A stretch of DNA of 64,000 nt from assembly GCA_021202925.1 (NCBI GenBank), contig JAJQCD010000010.1, positions 3,932 to 67,931 of the forward strand, written 5' to 3'. The notes beneath the pieces were generated by a model. It was given only the letters and a program-made list of their open reading frames with translations. It searched no databases and was not told where the DNA came from. The position numbers and the translations under genes were made by a program. Source of the DNA: Clostridiales bacterium (GTDB lineage Bacteria; Bacillota; Clostridia; Lachnospirales; Lachnospiraceae). Shown one piece after another: positions 8,684-15,262 of this stretch. Within the stretch, counting starts at the first letter, position 1. Each line of letters starts with the position of its first letter.

Positions 8684-10135
8684 TCATTCCGATGCGCCCT
8701 TGGTACTCATGACTATCAGATTGAAGATGTAGTCCTTTGCTTCAGCGAGGTAGCCTTCATTGTGATAAGAGAGTACAGGAATGTTGCAACTCTTTAAGTC
8801 TTTGGTATAATTGTCATGAATCTTTTCAATAGCTTCCTTCAAATCACGACAATAGGTTGTACCCTGTCGAACGGATTTTCGATTTTTTGCCTGGTCGTCG
8901 GACGAGAGTTTAATCATTTTCTTGATGTCTTCAAGCTTCTTGACGAGTGGAGCGTAGGATTTTTCTGTACATTTTGAAAAATTATCTACGAGCTCGTTCT
9001 TTTTTGCCTGGTTAATGAGCAGTCCTCCTGATGTGTGTGCGTGTTGAATAGCTGATTCTTTAAGAAGTTTGTTAAAACAGGATCGAAAAGAACTTCCTGC
9101 TGCATCAATCAGGTTTTGAATGGAAGAGATTCGGACTGTCCATTCTTTAAGGAAGGAATCCGGATTGTCGATTGCCAGTTCAAATGGTGAATCGACAATA
9201 TGGTGCGTACACAAGGCTTCATTTAAGTGGGTTAAGGCTTCGTTTGCTGCCTGATTGAGTCGGGATGAATAATCCTGGATAAAGTGAACTTGCAGGTCAG
9301 TAATCCAGGGTTCATCGTGAGGATACAGTATATTCACTGAGGCAACAGAGGAATCCTTGGCTCGTGTTACTTCGTATAGTCTGTCAGAATATTTTCCCAG
9401 TAGGTCAGTGAGAATGACATAATCGGACGGCACATTAAGAAGTCGGTTCGTAAGCGCTCTTACGGAATCTTTGATACATTCTGCCTGATCATCTGTTGTC
9501 GCATAAGAAGAGCAAATCTGCTCCAGTTTGAGAAAATAGGAACGTCCAAGGTTCTTAACCATCCAGGAATGGTAGGTTTCTGAAAAATCCATCAATTCTA
9601 TTCCTTCGATGGCAATCTTTGAAGCAACCGTGTTTGCAAGCTCATCGACGGAATGGTAAAGTTCTGTGACTGAGCGAATATCTCCTTTTACCAGTCTGTC
9701 AGCAGATAAAATCATAGGTAAGAGATAGGGAAGAAAGGCATAGGGGACCTCCCATTGGAATGTAGTATTTTTCTGTTGCTCCAAATTACAGTTGAGAATG
9801 AATTTCCCTTCATCATAAAGAGAGTCATATTGCCCTTCTTGAATTGTCTCTTCCTTTTCGGAATAAGGAAGTTGCAGTTTCAGACACTTCCGAGAAGGAT
9901 CGGACAAATAATTATATAACAATTCGTAAGTGGAGAATATTTCGTCTGACAATTTCAAACCTTTATGCAGATTGAAATAGAAAGCGGGGTTTGAATGTCC
10001 GAGTGAAGCAATAAACATAAGTTTCTCGAATGAATCAAATTGTTTTTTCGCAGTCTTCTGATCATATCTGTCAGTGACGCTGTTGATAAAATCGTAAAAA
10101 GCGGTTTTCGTTGTGATCCTGTCTTGGTTTGTCAT
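8684..10135 (-). CDS. Orphan hypothetical protein, 482 aa
   Basis: Long ORF; GGAGG RBS before ATG 10135; no family recognised. Confidence 0.8.
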   Translation of the reverse strand: MTNQDRITTKTAFYDFINSVTDRYDQKTAKKQFDSFEKLMFIASLGHSNPAFYFNLHKGLKLSDEIFSTYELLYNYLSDPSRKCLKLQLPYSEKEETIQEGQYDSLYDEGKFILNCNLEQQKNTTFQWEVPYAFLPYLLPMILSADRLVKGDIRSVTELYHSVDELANTVASKIAIEGIELMDFSETYHSWMVKNLGRSYFLKLEQICSSYATTDDQAECIKDSVRALTNRLLNVPSDYVILTDLLGKYSDRLYEVTRAKDSSVASVNILYPHDEPWITDLQVHFIQDYSSRLNQAANEALTHLNEALCTHHIVDSPFELAIDNPDSFLKEWTVRISSIQNLIDAAGSSFRSCFNKLLKESAIQHAHTSGGLLINQAKKNELVDNFSKCTEKSYAPLVKKLEDIKKMIKLSSDDQAKNRKSVRQGTTYCRDLKEAIEKIHDNYTKDLKSCNIPVLSYHNEGYLAEAKDYIFNLIVMSTKGASE

Positions 10136-10166
10136 TTTTTGATTCCTCCATATATATAAAATAAAT

Positions 10167-10195
10167 ATTATACAAAATTTAATATGATTTGTCAA
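10167..10195 (-). promoter_or_regulatory. Consensus sigma-A promoter for the 482-aa orphan
   Basis: Minus strand TTGACA (10195-10190), 17-bp spacer, TATAAT (10172-10167). Confidence 0.8.
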
Positions 10196-10485
10196 TAACC
10201 AAAATTCTGGTTGAAAAAAATTGGCTGTTCCAGTGGCAGGGGTGTTGCGATAGGATAAGGGCGTAACAAAACAATGGATGACATCTTCAAGCCGAAGACA
10301 TAGGAATAGTACAATGACGGAATTGGAAAAGGCAAAGAGACAGTCATCTTGCAGGCAGGAAATTCATCTTGAAGCTTACTTAATCACTGACGGCGAACTC
10401 AAGATTACGGATTTCTTCTGGCGGAACTGAGTTGAGCTTTAGGATGACCTGCAACCGCTGATTGGCGGGGAAAGGGGTATGAACC

Positions 10486-12639
10486 TTGAAAACTAAAGAC
10501 GTGGGAACAAACGAAATTGCAGTAAATGTGGCGCAGACGAAACTGATGAAGCCCTTCCACAAGGAGAGTCAACCTTTGAAGCAGAGTCCTATTTATGATT
10601 GGCCTCCAAGTGAGAAGATCTGCCCAATTTATCCATGGGATTCAGGTCAGAAGGCAAATCCCATTGTTAATGCTGATGAACTATCAGGCAATTACCATGA
10701 CGATCCGTTTGAAGGTATGGAATCTGACCGATTTCGATCTAAGCTGGATGCTCATGGAGAGACAGAGACAGAAGCTTCTCAGGAAGAAGTGGCTCTGTCA
10801 TGTGTGTCGGAAGGTGAAATGGCGGAGGTCGTTGATGTGGTGAGCACTCCTGTTTATCCGGAATTAATTCCAAGTTATCAGGCACCAACATCGTATTCGA
10901 ACACATTGGCCGTCTTTAATCAATCGGAAACGAGGATTTATGGATCCCCCAAACAACCTGACGATGAAGATGAGAGAGGTGGCGAAAGCTTCGTCGCAAA
11001 TTACAAACTTGAACCGCTTCGCATGGAACAGGTGATTAATTGGCGTGGTGACGTCGATTATGAAAATTGTTTGATTCGGGTGCGAATTCGGATAACACTA
11101 AGATCTCGCGAAATCTGTCAGGAATTTACGATATTTTGGAAAGAGATCGAAAGTCTGGCACAGGTTGTTGCAAGGCGTTTCCCTATGGCTCGGGCGAGGA
11201 AGAAATTCTATTCGCAAATCGAAATGGAATTTCGTGAAAGCCTGGAATGTATTGCAACCATTAACTGCTACTGTGATCATGGGTGGCAGCTAATCGCTGG
11301 AAAACGCATGTACGTCCATCAGACGGCGAAGGGGATCCTGGGGATAATTACCACGACGCAGAATCTTCCAGCAACTTCTGGCGTTGGCATCCAGGAATGC
11401 TGTGGTATCTGGGAAGCGTCACGGTCGTTATATCGAGTATCCGGCACTTCGGCAATTTTGAGTGTGTCAGCGTTCCTTGGGGTCATGTATCGGATTTTTG
11501 ATGAGGCGGGCCATGCGCCACGTTTCTTACTGTTTCTGACAGGCAAGACAGGATCCTTCAAGACCGCAATCGGCAAAGTGTTATTCACGCAAGTCGAGGA
11601 GGAGCGATTCAGGGAGCAACCGAGGCGATTGGATTCGGATACTTTGACTTCGCTGGAACGGAGCATCGTCACCTGCGGGCGCGACACAACGAGGCTGATT
11701 GATGATTTTTCGCCGGCTCTGAATAGACAGAAGAAGGCGACGCTGGAAAACGCACTTGAGATGATCACCCGGATGGTTGGTGATGGGAGTTCGCGGAGTC
11801 GTTCGAACGGAAGTCTTGAGGATAGACGAGGAGAAGGTGTTCGAGGGTTCGTAGTCGTTACTGGCGAGCTTCGCGGCAAGATTCTTTCATCGAATCTCAG
11901 GTGTCTTTATCTGACGATCGAGAAGGAGCACGTCAATTTAACACATCTAACATGGCTGCAGGAGAACAACGGAATGTATTGCGCTTTGATTCAGCATTTT
12001 ATCAATTATTTGTCGGATAATTGGGAGGGGATCGTTTCTTTTGTCCGAGAAAATTTCGATATCATGCGAAAAAAAGCGAGCAATATTTTACACACTGGTA
12101 GACTGGCGGATGCTCTTGCGATTCTGTGGTTGGCAACAGATATTCTGGCGGCTTTCTTTGAACGATGTGGTGAGACAGGGAGAGGAAATCTGTTCGAGCA
12201 GATGAAACGGGATATGATTTCTGTTTTTCTCGCCAGTGAGGCAATGGCGTATGAGGAAGATCCGACCGTCTCGTATATGTGTGCTCTTGAAACGCTGCTT
12301 GAGAATCAGGAACTGAATCTGAAAACTGGCCGATTTGGAGAAGAGGATCTGGAGAAGCTGGACGGCTTTGAGGCGGATGAATGCCTTTATCTGATGCCGT
12401 TACGCGTGTATCTGAAGGTGAAGAGCTGGATTCAGAAGGGCGGAGGAAGCTTTACACTGAGCGAAAAGGAGATCGTGACGGCTCTGGGTCAAGAGGGGTA
12501 TTTGGTTCCATCCTCAAATGGAAAAGAAAAGCGTACTTTTTATGCGAGAATTTTGATCGGTAAAAACCGCGTGAATTTTCTTCGAATACCACGATCTAAG
12601 TTGAGTGAGTTTGCGAGGACTGAGCCAGATTTTTTCTGA
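10486..12639 (+). CDS. DUF927/Cch-like AAA+ replicative helicase candidate
   Basis: Walker A GKTGSFKT, Walker B RLIDD, VVVTGE and SSNLRCL; preceded by HGWQ; located upstream of xis-int. No primase domain seen. Confidence 0.7.
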   Translation: MKTKDVGTNEIAVNVAQTKLMKPFHKESQPLKQSPIYDWPPSEKICPIYPWDSGQKANPIVNADELSGNYHDDPFEGMESDRFRSKLDAHGETETEASQEEVALSCVSEGEMAEVVDVVSTPVYPELIPSYQAPTSYSNTLAVFNQSETRIYGSPKQPDDEDERGGESFVANYKLEPLRMEQVINWRGDVDYENCLIRVRIRITLRSREICQEFTIFWKEIESLAQVVARRFPMARARKKFYSQIEMEFRESLECIATINCYCDHGWQLIAGKRMYVHQTAKGILGIITTTQNLPATSGVGIQECCGIWEASRSLYRVSGTSAILSVSAFLGVMYRIFDEAGHAPRFLLFLTGKTGSFKTAIGKVLFTQVEEERFREQPRRLDSDTLTSLERSIVTCGRDTTRLIDDFSPALNRQKKATLENALEMITRMVGDGSSRSRSNGSLEDRRGEGVRGFVVVTGELRGKILSSNLRCLYLTIEKEHVNLTHLTWLQENNGMYCALIQHFINYLSDNWEGIVSFVRENFDIMRKKASNILHTGRLADALAILWLATDILAAFFERCGETGRGNLFEQMKRDMISVFLASEAMAYEEDPTVSYMCALETLLENQELNLKTGRFGEEDLEKLDGFEADECLYLMPLRVYLKVKSWIQKGGGSFTLSEKEIVTALGQEGYLVPSSNGKEKRTFYARILIGKNRVNFLRIPRSKLSEFARTEPDFF

Positions 12640-12664
12640 CATTTCAGAAACGATACATCCTTTG

Positions 12665-12691
12665 TCGGCATATTTTAATGTGGTATGCCGA
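12665..12691 (+). other. Stem-loop just upstream of the intron-like RNA
   Basis: TCGGCATA (12665-72) pairs with TATGCCGA (12684-91); ATGTGGTATGC occurs twice (12678-88, 12691-701). Confidence 0.6.
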
Positions 12692-12697
12692 TGTGGT

Positions 12698-12917
12698 ATG
12701 CGCCGGGCATGGCTCAGTTCTAACTGGTGAAAGTCCAGTTATGGGTAACTTACCGTCCATGTAGTTAAACGCAAGGCGGCAATCCCGTTGTCAGTGACAG
12801 TGACGAAAGTAAATCAGATACTGTGAGGATGGATTAATTACTATGGGCTTGGAAGTATGAAGGTCTTTATACACAATGCAACGGGAGAGGCGAGACATTA
12901 GCCTCCCTCTACCCTAT
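12698..12917 (+). ncRNA. Miniature ORF-less group IIC intron-derived RNA
   Basis: 5' ATGCGCCGGGCATGG, hairpin TAACTGG-TGAAAGT-CCAGTTA, AACGCAAGG, stem GTAGTTAA/TTAATTAC, and a 3' domain VI-like stem GGGAGAGG/CCTCT-A-CCC ending in TAT. Domain Id, DII-IV and canonical DV are absent. Confidence 0.65.
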
Positions 12918-12937
12918 TTTTGGAGGGAGGTGATATC

Positions 12938-13129
12938 ATGCAGAAACAAAGCATTCCGCTGACAGAAAAACGGCTGTTATCCGTTCCCGAGTTTCAGGCT
13001 TATGCGAGTATTGGCCGGAACAACGCATTTCGGTTGATCCGTCAAGCTGATTGCGAGGTGCGTATCGGACGCAGGGTCTTTGCGGATCGCGTTCGGTTCG
13101 ACGCCTGGTGTAGCGCACAACACGGATGA
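12938..13129 (+). CDS. xis: Excisionase-like DNA-binding protein
   Basis: 63 aa, RLLSVPEFQAYASIGRNNAFRLI...VRIGRRVFADR; GGAGGGAGG RBS; directly upstream of the integrase. Confidence 0.8.
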   Translation: MQKQSIPLTEKRLLSVPEFQAYASIGRNNAFRLIRQADCEVRIGRRVFADRVRFDAWCSAQHG

Positions 13130-13201
13130 AATGACATAGACAACGGAGGGGGATGGAGCGACCATCCCTCTTATTGAAATATTAGAAAGAAGGAATTATC
13201 A

Positions 13202-14356
13202 ATGACAACAAAAGATATAAAAAAGCTTCCGAAAGGAATCACGCTTCGATCAGATGGTTACTATTTAGGACGGGTATCCTACTTTGGGGAAAGATATTCT
13301 CTGTATGACAGAGATCTGAAAACACTTCAAAGGCGGTTGAATGACTTGCGTTACGAACTGGAGCACGGGCTATATGCGAAAAAATCCCAGCTTACGATTG
13401 ACGACTGGTTCCGAACCTGGATTAGAGAATATAAATCAATGACCGTCAAGCAGGGGACGGTTGGCGTATACGAGGATACGTATCGTGCATATATCAAAGA
13501 TGCTTTGGGCAGGAAGAAGTTAAAGGATCTGAGGCCGGAACAGATTCAGGCTCTCTATAATAAGCTGAATCTTGACGGCTATTCGCACAGTACGATTGAA
13601 CTGGTGTCCGTGGTCCTCGGAGGTCTGTACAAACAGGCTTACAAAAACCAGCTGATTCAGAAGAATCCCGTTCCGTTGGCAACACTTCCGAAAGCGGTCG
13701 ATACTGTGAGGCAACGTGTTCTGACGGCAGAGGAACAGGAAATATTCTTACAGATTGCCAGAAAGCGTAAATACAGTCTGGCTTATGAGCTGGCGTTGTC
13801 GACGGGAATGCGAAGTGGCGAGGTTCGTGGTCTGCGTTGGGAAGATATTGATTTTGACAAGAGGCTAATCCATGTAACCGGTACATTGGTACAGAATCGA
13901 TATGGTTTTTACCGCGATCTGCCAAAGACGAAGAGTAGCCTTCGGGATATTCCGATGTTAGACAATGTGTATCAGTTGCTCGAAAAGTGGCGGGAAGAAC
14001 AGTCGGAGCGAAGGAATATGCTTGGCGCAGACTGGCGAGCAACAGAAGAATTTAAGGATCTGGTGGTCGCGACAGACATGGGTGCGCCGTTAGGTAAGAG
14101 TTATCTTAATAAGGGCATTAAGACGATCATCAAGCATATTGAGTCGGAGACAGAGAAACCATTTGAGTACATCACGTTTCATGGCCTGAGACATACTTTC
14201 GCGACCAGATGTATCGAAAATGGAATGGAACCTCAGGTATTGAAAGCGATTATGGGACATTCTAAACTGTCAATGACGATGGATCTGTATGCACATGTAT
14301 TGCCAGATGCAAAGTTAAAGGAAATGGAAAAAATCGCTGGGCTGTTTGAAAAATAA
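13202..14356 (+). CDS. int: Tyrosine integrase
   Basis: STGMRSGE (catalytic R), FHGLRHTFATR, MGHS...MDLYAH; N-terminal arm-binding and SAM-like regions. Confidence 0.95.
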   Translation: MTTKDIKKLPKGITLRSDGYYLGRVSYFGERYSLYDRDLKTLQRRLNDLRYELEHGLYAKKSQLTIDDWFRTWIREYKSMTVKQGTVGVYEDTYRAYIKDALGRKKLKDLRPEQIQALYNKLNLDGYSHSTIELVSVVLGGLYKQAYKNQLIQKNPVPLATLPKAVDTVRQRVLTAEEQEIFLQIARKRKYSLAYELALSTGMRSGEVRGLRWEDIDFDKRLIHVTGTLVQNRYGFYRDLPKTKSSLRDIPMLDNVYQLLEKWREEQSERRNMLGADWRATEEFKDLVVATDMGAPLGKSYLNKGIKTIIKHIESETEKPFEYITFHGLRHTFATRCIENGMEPQVLKAIMGHSKLSMTMDLYAHVLPDAKLKEMEKIAGLFEK

Positions 14357-14484
14357 GAATGGAACATGCGCAGAGGTTGGTAAAACACTGGATGATAACT
14401 GTCAAAAGTAAAGGATGGCAGAGCAGAGGAGAAGGTAAGTGTTTCCTCTACTTTGCCATTTTAAGTGTGAAAAGAGTTTCATAT

Positions 14485-14916
14485 TCACGGAGATTGCACG
14501 CCAGGATCATCTTGGCTCTTTGACAGTCTCTTTTCCACATAATTTGATACGCCGTCAAAAAATAAATGTGCCTGACTGATCTGATCTTCAACGTCAACCT
14601 TTGATATGACATAATAATCATCATAATCAGATTCTGTTCTGACTTCAAAGGCTTTGGTTAGAATCTTGGAATACTCTTTTTCAAAGATTCCAGACCGGAC
14701 ATAGTTTTTCTGGAAATAAGCCATCACACCTGCGTGTTTAGAAAAATCAATTCCGTCTAATGCAAGTATACTTCTAATGCAGTGAAAAATACTATAATAG
14801 GATCGATTGGCAGCACTGCAATAGTCTCCTGAATTTAAAAGGATTTTGGCTGATTCGAGACATTGCGCCGATTTTTCCAGGCGATATTTGCATAAGGCTA
14901 TCTTCCTATCATCCAT
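14485..14916 (-). CDS. HEPN domain protein, partner of the MNT
   Basis: AANRSYYSIFH, SKHAGV and RTESDY; overlaps the MNT stop codon. Confidence 0.9.
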   Translation of the reverse strand: MDDRKIALCKYRLEKSAQCLESAKILLNSGDYCSAANRSYYSIFHCIRSILALDGIDFSKHAGVMAYFQKNYVRSGIFEKEYSKILTKAFEVRTESDYDDYYVISKVDVEDQISQAHLFFDGVSNYVEKRLSKSQDDPGVQSP

Positions 14917-15262
14917 AGATTGCTACCCCTTCTTTCACTACATTTTGATAGAACGGAAGGAAATCCTGATTTTCCTCAAAGTGTTTCCGATCTCTTAATA
15001 TAATTGACACGAAGATTCCTTCATCAAGAGAAATGTCGCTGGCCATTTCAGATGTCCTGTCGCGCAGCTTCCTGATTTCGTTCTGGTCACAGTCTAGCAA
15101 TATCATGATATCAATATCAGATTCGTCGGTATGATCCCCTCTGGCATAGGAGCCATACAGAATAATCCGATCAAGTTGGTTCCCATAAATTTTTCTGGAT
15201 TCTTCTTTTATTCTTCCCAATACGCTCTGCAATTCAGCATTGTTACATTCGTGATTCTCCAT
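14909..15262 (-). CDS. Minimal nucleotidyltransferase (MNT)
   Basis: LYGSYARGDHTDESDIDIM motif (GSxxxG..DxD). Confidence 0.92.
   Translation of the reverse strand: MENHECNNAELQSVLGRIKEESRKIYGNQLDRIILYGSYARGDHTDESDIDIMILLDCDQNEIRKLRDRTSEMASDISLDEGIFVSIILRDRKHFEENQDFLPFYQNVVKEGVAIYG

Follow-up and report, generated by a model that had tools for sequence, protein, structure and literature searches.

The 298-nt gap upstream of the excisionase gene xis, in the 64,000-nt stretch of Clostridiales DNA that we analysed (hereafter the window), is a decayed class C (IIC) group II intron and not a dedicated regulatory leader. The 220-nt relic (12698-12917, + strand) fills much of the gap, and its last hairpin, domain VI, carries a pyrimidine tract that can pair with the Shine-Dalgarno (SD) sequence of xis. 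We consider it likely that this is simply a class C intron relic lying beside a strong SD, and that the anti-SD hairpin is a by-product of the insertion that constitutively damps Xis translation. An initial annotation had interpreted the same region as a switch, in which two mutually exclusive hairpins would make Xis output depend on how an intron-like RNA folds. The domain VI, the exclusive folds and the excisionase of that interpretation hold up; the regulated switch is unsupported.

The ORF at 12938 had been named an excisionase gene, and a profile of eight homologues agrees with that name by matching Tn916 Xis (PDB 1y6u; E = 1.1e-15); xis (12938-13129, + strand) thus encodes a 63-aa protein of the Tn916-Xis kind. 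The identification comes only through the family profile and not from a single-sequence search: Pfam Tn916-Xis (PF09035) matches seven of the eight family members, and the window protein alone scores 12.8 bits, under the 22.9 cut-off. A tyrosine recombinase gene, int (13202-14356, + strand; Pfam Phage_integrase, 3e-30, together with Phage_int_SAM_3), lies 72 nt downstream of xis. Directly downstream of int is a HEPN and nucleotidyltransferase (MNT-type) pair (14485-15262, - strand), according to the Pfam marks on a contig identical to this locus (L092); in the closest relative element, L108, a HEPN gene is found downstream of int too. On the other side of xis are a 717-aa ORF (10486-12639, + strand) and a 503-aa ORF (8684-10195, - strand). 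Singly, the Xis, 717-aa and 503-aa proteins had no matches in Pfam, NCBIfam or PHROGs. Since the gene just upstream of xis in related elements encodes a D5-like primase-helicase (DUF5906), the 717-aa ORF found here means that the upstream module has been exchanged in the window.

Other copies of the intron, some in this genome and some in relatives, match the relic at its 5ʹ end and in domain VI. The 5ʹ exon contains a stem-loop (12663-12693, + strand; 12 bp, 7-nt loop; RNAfold -15.7 kcal/mol), a terminator-like intron target motif that lies 24 nt past the stop codon of the 717-aa ORF and ends 4 nt before the intron. The intron 5ʹ segment, the start of domain I (12698-12779, + strand), reads ATGCGCCGGGCATGG where the family consensus is GTGTGCCGGGCATGG, and is 73-88% identical to five related copies (L094, L096, L102, L103 and L104). 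Its first five bases are ATGCG (12698-12702), as against GTGTG in five of the six related copies that are readable there and CTGTG in L102; the GUGYG 5ʹ end of a functional group II intron is absent from the window copy. This segment overlaps a fragment of the maturase domain of the intron-encoded protein (IEP) (12764-12871, + strand; Pfam GIIM, 27.9 bits in a six-frame translation), which comprises 36 codons, covers GIIM positions 12-48 only and is interrupted by one in-frame TGA. The peptide includes the motif GWINYY and can be aligned to a relative's IEP (L101, 434 aa) at residues ~300-338. In the relic, sequence of the IEP fragment up to 12871 takes the place of the domain V sequence found in L101, L103 and the copies elsewhere in the genome. 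A genome scan with RF00029 (domains V-VI) finds only a site on contig C14 and a weak one on C6, not the window relic.

The relic has no ORF, no domain V and an A as its first base, and its 220 nt compare with ~1.9 kb estimated for a full copy. Of the features of a functional intron, it retains a bulged-A domain VI hairpin near its 3ʹ end; neither an intact IEP nor an intact ORF-less ribozyme is present in the window copy. Given the missing domain V, the first base A and the destroyed IEP, we regard this copy, from its sequence, as dead: it cannot splice and should stay in every transcript that reads into xis. This leaves no ribozyme fold that could be coupled to Xis output, and the proposed coupling is unsupported. 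Nor is there a sensor of the kind expected in a regulatory leader, that is, a ligand domain, a leader peptide with an SD, or an Rfam family. An Rfam scan of 10000-15000 (E up to 1) returned no regulatory family, only a weak match to intron domains I-IV (D1D4-4, 12721-12886; 21.3 bits, under the cut-off of 49). There is a 14-codon ORF, MKVFIHNATGEARH (12857-12901, + strand), which is the tail of the broken IEP frame and has no convincing SD; it crosses domain VI in the 5ʹ strand and ends a single base short of the anti-SD tract. A consensus scan for promoters and terminators found nothing at the hairpins. It marked one weak promoter-like site inside the relic (12794-12822), and the promoter-like count was no higher than in shuffles. 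Two other placements of the intron were considered and rejected. Were xis and int inside domain IV of a giant intron, domain VI would follow them; instead it precedes xis, the last intron base being 12917. The SD hairpin is likewise no relic of domain IVa, the IEP-binding site with the SD of the IEP itself, as the SD belongs to the 3ʹ exon and also occurs in L108, which has no intron there.

The domain VI sequence is common to six other copies, in this genome and two relatives. A search of the genome with 12640-12940 placed matches to the last ~45 nt (12877-12922), at 95-96% identity, on contigs C25 and C36, in each case at the contig end. A shorter, more diverged form of this segment lies inside C13, and C23 ends in a match to the first ~50 nt (12699-12751). 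Such a pattern marks a multi-copy element at which the assembly breaks. Three contigs end within copies of this intron family (C23:80392-80444, C25:79043-79101 and C36:56691-56745), and full-length copies appear to exist in this genome. The assembly itself contains no full-length copy and no other GIIM match, only the contig-end junctions, with the interior not assembled. Because all contigs are at least 2501 nt long, a short repeat contig holding the collapsed intron interior was probably filtered out. In searches of other collections with the locus, plasmid DNA gave no match and phage DNA gave one 81-nt match to the intron 5ʹ end, irrelevant to xis.

Which class of group II intron does the relic come from? 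In the window and in the six copies with a readable 5ʹ junction (L003, L094, L096, L102, L103 and L104), the intron lies a few nt past a stem-loop. For IIC introns, the site of splicing or insertion is 3-11 nt past a terminator-like stem-loop, and the IIC intron B.h.I1 begins GTGTGCCAGGCATGCGC, as read from primer sequences (PMC1702495); insertion of IIC introns at terminators has also been described elsewhere (PMC4424553). The 434-aa IEP of L101 has RVT_1 and GIIM only, with no endonuclease domain, although this is the protein of a relative and not of the window copy. Together, the location past a stem-loop, the B.h.I1-like 5ʹ end and the lack of an endonuclease in the relative's IEP are hallmarks of class C (PMC1702495, PMC4424553), the only sequence evidence for this lineage being the 5ʹ 15 nt that resemble B.h.I1.

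Other intron remnants and repeats came to light during these searches. L103 holds an ORF-less 167-nt mini-intron of the same family behind a terminator hairpin (2355-2521; G023:C7), in which the first ~95 nt are fused to domains V-VI (RF00029, 42.8 bits), a deletion pattern unlike that of the window relic. A second relic, consisting of domain VI alone, is found at L005 (1492-1538; G000:C13:126343-126389), followed after 3 nt by an SD-like AAGGGGA and an ATG. Its complement to that SD is only ~4 nt, which indicates that anti-SD pairing is no recurring design. A different group II intron has left a domain V-VI at G000:C14:81891-81959 (- strand; RF00029, 46.9 bits), with no GIIM match nearby. The ends of contigs C2, C3, C6, C8, C10, C14, C16 and C32 of the same genome share ~60-nt sequences (GTAACTATTCAG..., then a hairpin-like stretch), which are probably the termini of one or two multi-copy insertion sequences.

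The strings on which the initial annotation was built are all where it placed them: GGGAGAGG at 12883-90, CCTCCCTC at 12902-09, TTTTT at 12917-21, GAGGGAGG at 12923-30 and the ATG at 12938. Its anti-SD pairing is also correct; the register it gave for the upstream pairing is not. There, 12883-90 had been paired with 12902-09. A partner stem does exist, but in this register it includes an A.C mismatch and a G.U pair and so is imperfect. The best fold of domain VI (12883-12914, + strand) instead pairs 12883-90 with 12906-14 around the bulged branch-point A12911, and adds an inner three-pair stem (12892-94/12903-05), for -16.5 kcal/mol (z = -3.9). For the bulged-A register, 96.4% of cells across the seven intron copies are paired, slid controls reaching 75% at most, and the stem shows one compensatory pair. 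RF00029 covers the homologous stem, corresponding to 12883-12914, in L101 and L103, where the family scores above the gathering score (42.9 and 42.8 bits). What had been called a "domain VI-like stem" is hence a genuine group II intron domain VI. The UAU at 12915-17 is the 3ʹ end of the intron, and the T5 run that follows the stem is composed of T12917, the last intron base, and the first 3ʹ-exon bases TTTT (12918-12921, + strand). All seven copies have T12918, in keeping with an IBS3 position. They share every base of TATT (12915-12918) and then diverge, which fits a 3ʹ splice site after 12917 and a conserved IBS3 base one position later.

The 3ʹ strand of domain VI is also the strand that meets the SD. 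CCTCCCTC is the exact reverse complement of GAGGGAGG over all 8 nt, as had been claimed, and this perfect core grows to 11 bp, from G12901.U12931 to A12911-U12921, with the flanking G.U, U.G and A-U pairs included. The resulting anti-SD hairpin (12901-12931, + strand) pairs 12901-11 with 12921-31 across a 9-nt loop, with an energy of -18.3 kcal/mol (z = -3.05 relative to shuffled sequences). Given 71 nt of context, it widens to an imperfect hairpin spanning 12890-12941 (-23.7 kcal/mol), in which the U and G of the start codon are paired as well. The SD itself, GGAGGTGAT (12926-12934, + strand), has a GGAGG core that ends at 12930, with a 7-nt spacer to the ATG, and it is a strong, G-rich one (GGAGGGAGGUGAU). 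Domain VI and the hairpin that buries the SD use the same pyrimidine strand, so the mutual exclusivity proposed for the two folds is real.

Seven copies, with 3ʹ exons unrelated to one another, hardly differ in the 3ʹ strand of domain VI. Hence, the tract was inherited from the intron family and not shaped for xis. We compared the loci of xis homologues (L013-L017, L105, L106 and L108-L117), 15 loci with ~8 distinct upstream regions, and found no intron upstream of xis at any of them. At these loci xis starts 40-140 nt past the preceding gene, behind an ordinary strong SD. In the closest relative, L108, Xis is 87% identical and the locus is intron-free; it comes from the same sequencing series as the identical copy of the window locus. 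The SD of L108 is AGGGAGGTGA, and the SD core GGGAGGTGA is already present there without the intron. Within the L108 SD stretch, AAAGGGAGGTGA, AGGGAGG is a 7-nt perfect complement of domain VI, which means that most of the complementarity existed when the intron landed. The duplex with domain VI is 7 nt and -15.1 kcal/mol for the L108 SD and 8 nt and -20.6 kcal/mol for the window SD, a gain of one Watson-Crick and two flanking pairs. All homologous loci compared lack the relic, the pyrimidine strand comes from the intron family and the SD core is present in L108; each of these counts against the switch idea. Conserved, covarying alternative structures before homologous xis genes were not found; with only one independent sequence of the window locus, covariation has no power in either direction, as Logan contig L092 is identical to it over 5423 nt. 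Viral contigs searched by the exact xis-start pattern or with the Xis protein gave no match, and a metagenome scan with Xis gave no relative closer than those found otherwise.

To gauge how unusual the complementarity is, we used as a comparison set the 940 starts of the form GGAGG-N5-10-ATG that belong to ORFs of at least 120 codons in the same genome. All 940 have a complement of at least 5 nt to the domain VI strand, trivially, since the strand contains CCTCC. A complement of at least 8 nt is found at 2.0% of the 940 starts, and a duplex as strong as -20.6 kcal/mol at 1.4%. The anti-SD complementarity thus exceeds chance only moderately. The most economical reading, to our minds, is that it arose by accident rather than by selection. 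Nonetheless, complementarity above that of 98% of GGAGG-type ribosome-binding sites, and pairing longer than that of the L108 SD, may reflect some tuning after the insertion.

Which of the two folds prevails? In partition functions computed for five contexts (71-401 nt), the probability of the anti-SD pairs never falls below 0.99 and that of the domain VI pairs never exceeds 0.01. The alternative folds are exclusive yet not balanced, contrary to what a switch between them would suggest: the equilibrium is 99:1 for the closed state. The hairpin wins outright, and constitutive damping is the predicted result. During transcription the order is different. As the transcript grows, domain VI is the minimum free energy (MFE) fold until the 3ʹ end reaches ~12926-12930, and the anti-SD hairpin wins from 12932 on. 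Domain VI can, on these models, form only transiently, before ~12932 is made. The direct refolding path from domain VI to the anti-SD hairpin has a findpath barrier of ~15.7 kcal/mol, which is an upper bound. With so high an estimate, and with domain VI forming first, a transient state with an open SD is physically possible; if kinetically trapped, it could persist long enough to matter. This predicted state is the sole element that keeps the switch idea alive.

A co-opted kinetic switch would make use of exactly this state: nascent domain VI would free the SD for the first ribosome loading, and later refolding would close xis. In an extended form, stabilisation or disruption of domain VI by translation of the 14-codon ORF or by IEP binding would tune Xis. 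The exclusivity of the folds, the early MFE of domain VI, the refolding barrier and a complementarity in the top 1.4-2% are all as such a switch would have them, as is the end of the 14-codon ORF at 12901, directly before the anti-SD tract; full-length copies of the intron family, apparently present in the genome to judge from the contig ends, could supply an IEP. We nonetheless think a co-opted switch unlikely. The arrangement is absent from every homologous xis locus compared, domain VI is unchanged from the intron family, the SD core is older than the insertion, and the 99:1 equilibrium lies with the closed state. The 14-codon ORF is a mere tail of the broken IEP frame with no usable SD. 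Domain IVa is the main IEP-binding site of group II introns, and it is deleted here. The stronger claim, that the relic has been domesticated as a kinetic gate that allows one pulse of translation per transcript and then closes, giving low, burst-like Xis, is a model that we hold to be slightly less probable still; ribosomes that translate the 14-codon ORF, or the maturase encoded by full-length intron copies in the cell, would possibly modulate such a gate. If true, this would be a first instance in which a group II intron domain has been reused to regulate the translation of a mobile element's excisionase.

At the other extreme, the hairpin might be of no consequence. An in-silico hairpin of this kind might easily be opened by ribosomes and by coupled transcription-translation, leaving Xis output unchanged. 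In line with this, the net cost of opening the SD at xis is 5.7 kcal/mol, and 10% of the native sites are as costly or more; for opening -16..+3 the net cost is 8.0 kcal/mol, and 26% of native sites are as costly or more. These net costs are unremarkable because domain VI refolds as compensation. When native -20..+15 segments were joined to the 3ʹ end of the intron, 5.7% reached an SD-opening cost at least that of xis. The SD and two bases of the AUG are, on the other hand, paired at a probability above 0.94 in all tested contexts, which speaks against an easily opened site. Hairpins of such strength over an SD commonly lower initiation. We therefore give the absence of any effect very little credence, and favour constitutive damping: Xis translation is probably reduced, as far as the folding models go.

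The relic could also act on transcription. The stem of domain VI (-16.5 kcal/mol) ends at C12914 and is followed by six U in 7 nt, and together with UAUUUUU (12915-21) it would constitute an intrinsic terminator that halts read-through from the 717-aa gene before xis, rebuilt from the intron stem and the leftover U-tract of the target terminator. The copy on C25 also has a U-run right after domain VI, and IIC introns are known to insert at terminators (PMC4424553). By eye, however, the stem is a bulged one of 11 bp that ends at 12914; it is broken by two bulges, and the consensus terminator scan makes no call at the site. The 3ʹ exons of other copies are not U-rich. Termination here would silence xis altogether unless there were another promoter, and there is no room for one downstream: only 28 nt separate 12910 from the ATG, so that a promoter downstream of 12910, an outcome the initial annotation had allowed for, is not physically meaningful. 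Attenuation of this kind is doubtful on these grounds, and where it did occur it would be compatible with an accident of insertion rather than exclusive of it. The stem and U-run may be a by-product of IIC insertion at terminators; in the other copies compared, the T-rich tract is upstream of the intron.

A second RNA structure in this region has a better claim to conservation. A GC-rich hairpin between xis and int (13146-13172, + strand; -19.4 kcal/mol, z = -3.1) keeps its position in relatives: in all five loci compared (the window and L013-L016), a GC-rich stem of 10-11 bp lies between the xis stop codon and the int SD. The stems differ in sequence and share the position, and in most relatives a T-rich run follows. 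Possibly the hairpin is a conserved attenuator or terminator by which the Xis:Int ratio is set. Among the loci compared, the conserved RNA feature of this xis-int family is the intergenic xis-int hairpin, not the anti-SD hairpin.

Our preferred reading, an accident of insertion, would run as follows. A class C group II intron would have retro-inserted 4 nt past the terminator-like stem-loop behind the 717-aa gene, at a site 21 nt upstream of the xis start codon. It would then have decayed, two internal deletions leaving 220 nt that consist of ~80 nt of domain I, a 36-codon maturase piece with a stop codon, and domain VI. The unspliced relic would persist in each transcript that runs into xis. 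There, the family-conserved pyrimidine tract with its CCUCC would meet the G-rich xis SD to form the 11-bp anti-SD hairpin, which would extend to 12890-12941, pair two bases of the AUG as well and win at equilibrium. The predicted outcome is constitutive damping of Xis translation.

What is the significance of such an arrangement? The striking anti-SD hairpin is accounted for by two features that are ordinary in themselves, a domain VI rich in pyrimidines and a strong SD of the Firmicute kind, and retroelement debris can in this way create a new cis-acting RNA structure upon insertion. If the hairpin lowers Xis synthesis, the relic would stabilise the integrated state of the element. As it stands, the finding is an annotation point and opens no long-standing question.

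The intron itself is most readily compared with B.h.I1, a IIC intron of Bacillus halodurans. Like the family of the relic, B.h.I1 sits a few nt past a terminator-like stem-loop, and its 5ʹ end is nearly that of the family (GTGTGCCAGGCATGCGC and GTGTGCCGGGCATGG, respectively). IIC introns such as B.h.I1 also share with it the bulged-A domain VI, the single conserved first base of the 3ʹ exon (IBS3) and, in the relatives, an IEP without an endonuclease. Unlike B.h.I1, the window copy is a 220-nt relic with A as its first base, no domains II-V and 36 IEP codons with a stop. In its state of decay it resembles the fragmented or ORF-less group II copies of bacterial genomes, which are likewise internally deleted, intergenic and beside mobile-element genes; it differs from them in that the surviving strand of domain VI is the complement of the SD of the next gene.

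Pairing of a pyrimidine tract with an SD, together with an upstream competitor that could release it, also recalls ermC-type attenuators, RNA thermometers and the expression platforms of riboswitches. In contrast to these SD-sequestering leaders, the window has no sensor, no conservation among homologous genes and no balance of energies (99:1). The gene order, with a small Tn916-Xis-like excisionase directly upstream of a tyrosine integrase, is that of Tn916-type modules, and xis expression presumably depends, by analogy with those modules, on read-through from upstream genes. Control in Tn916 is by transcriptional attenuation far upstream, near tet(M), and we know of no intron-derived anti-SD described in Tn916-type modules.

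The closest parallel for an effect on a neighbouring gene is provided by IIC-attC introns, for which outward-directed effects on downstream cassettes have been reported (Leon et al. 2010, as related in PMC4424553). As far as that account goes, the likeness is that a IIC intron just upstream of a gene alters the expression signals of that gene. The IIC-attC introns it describes are intact and supply promoters, whereas the relic in the window would supply an inhibitory RNA strand.
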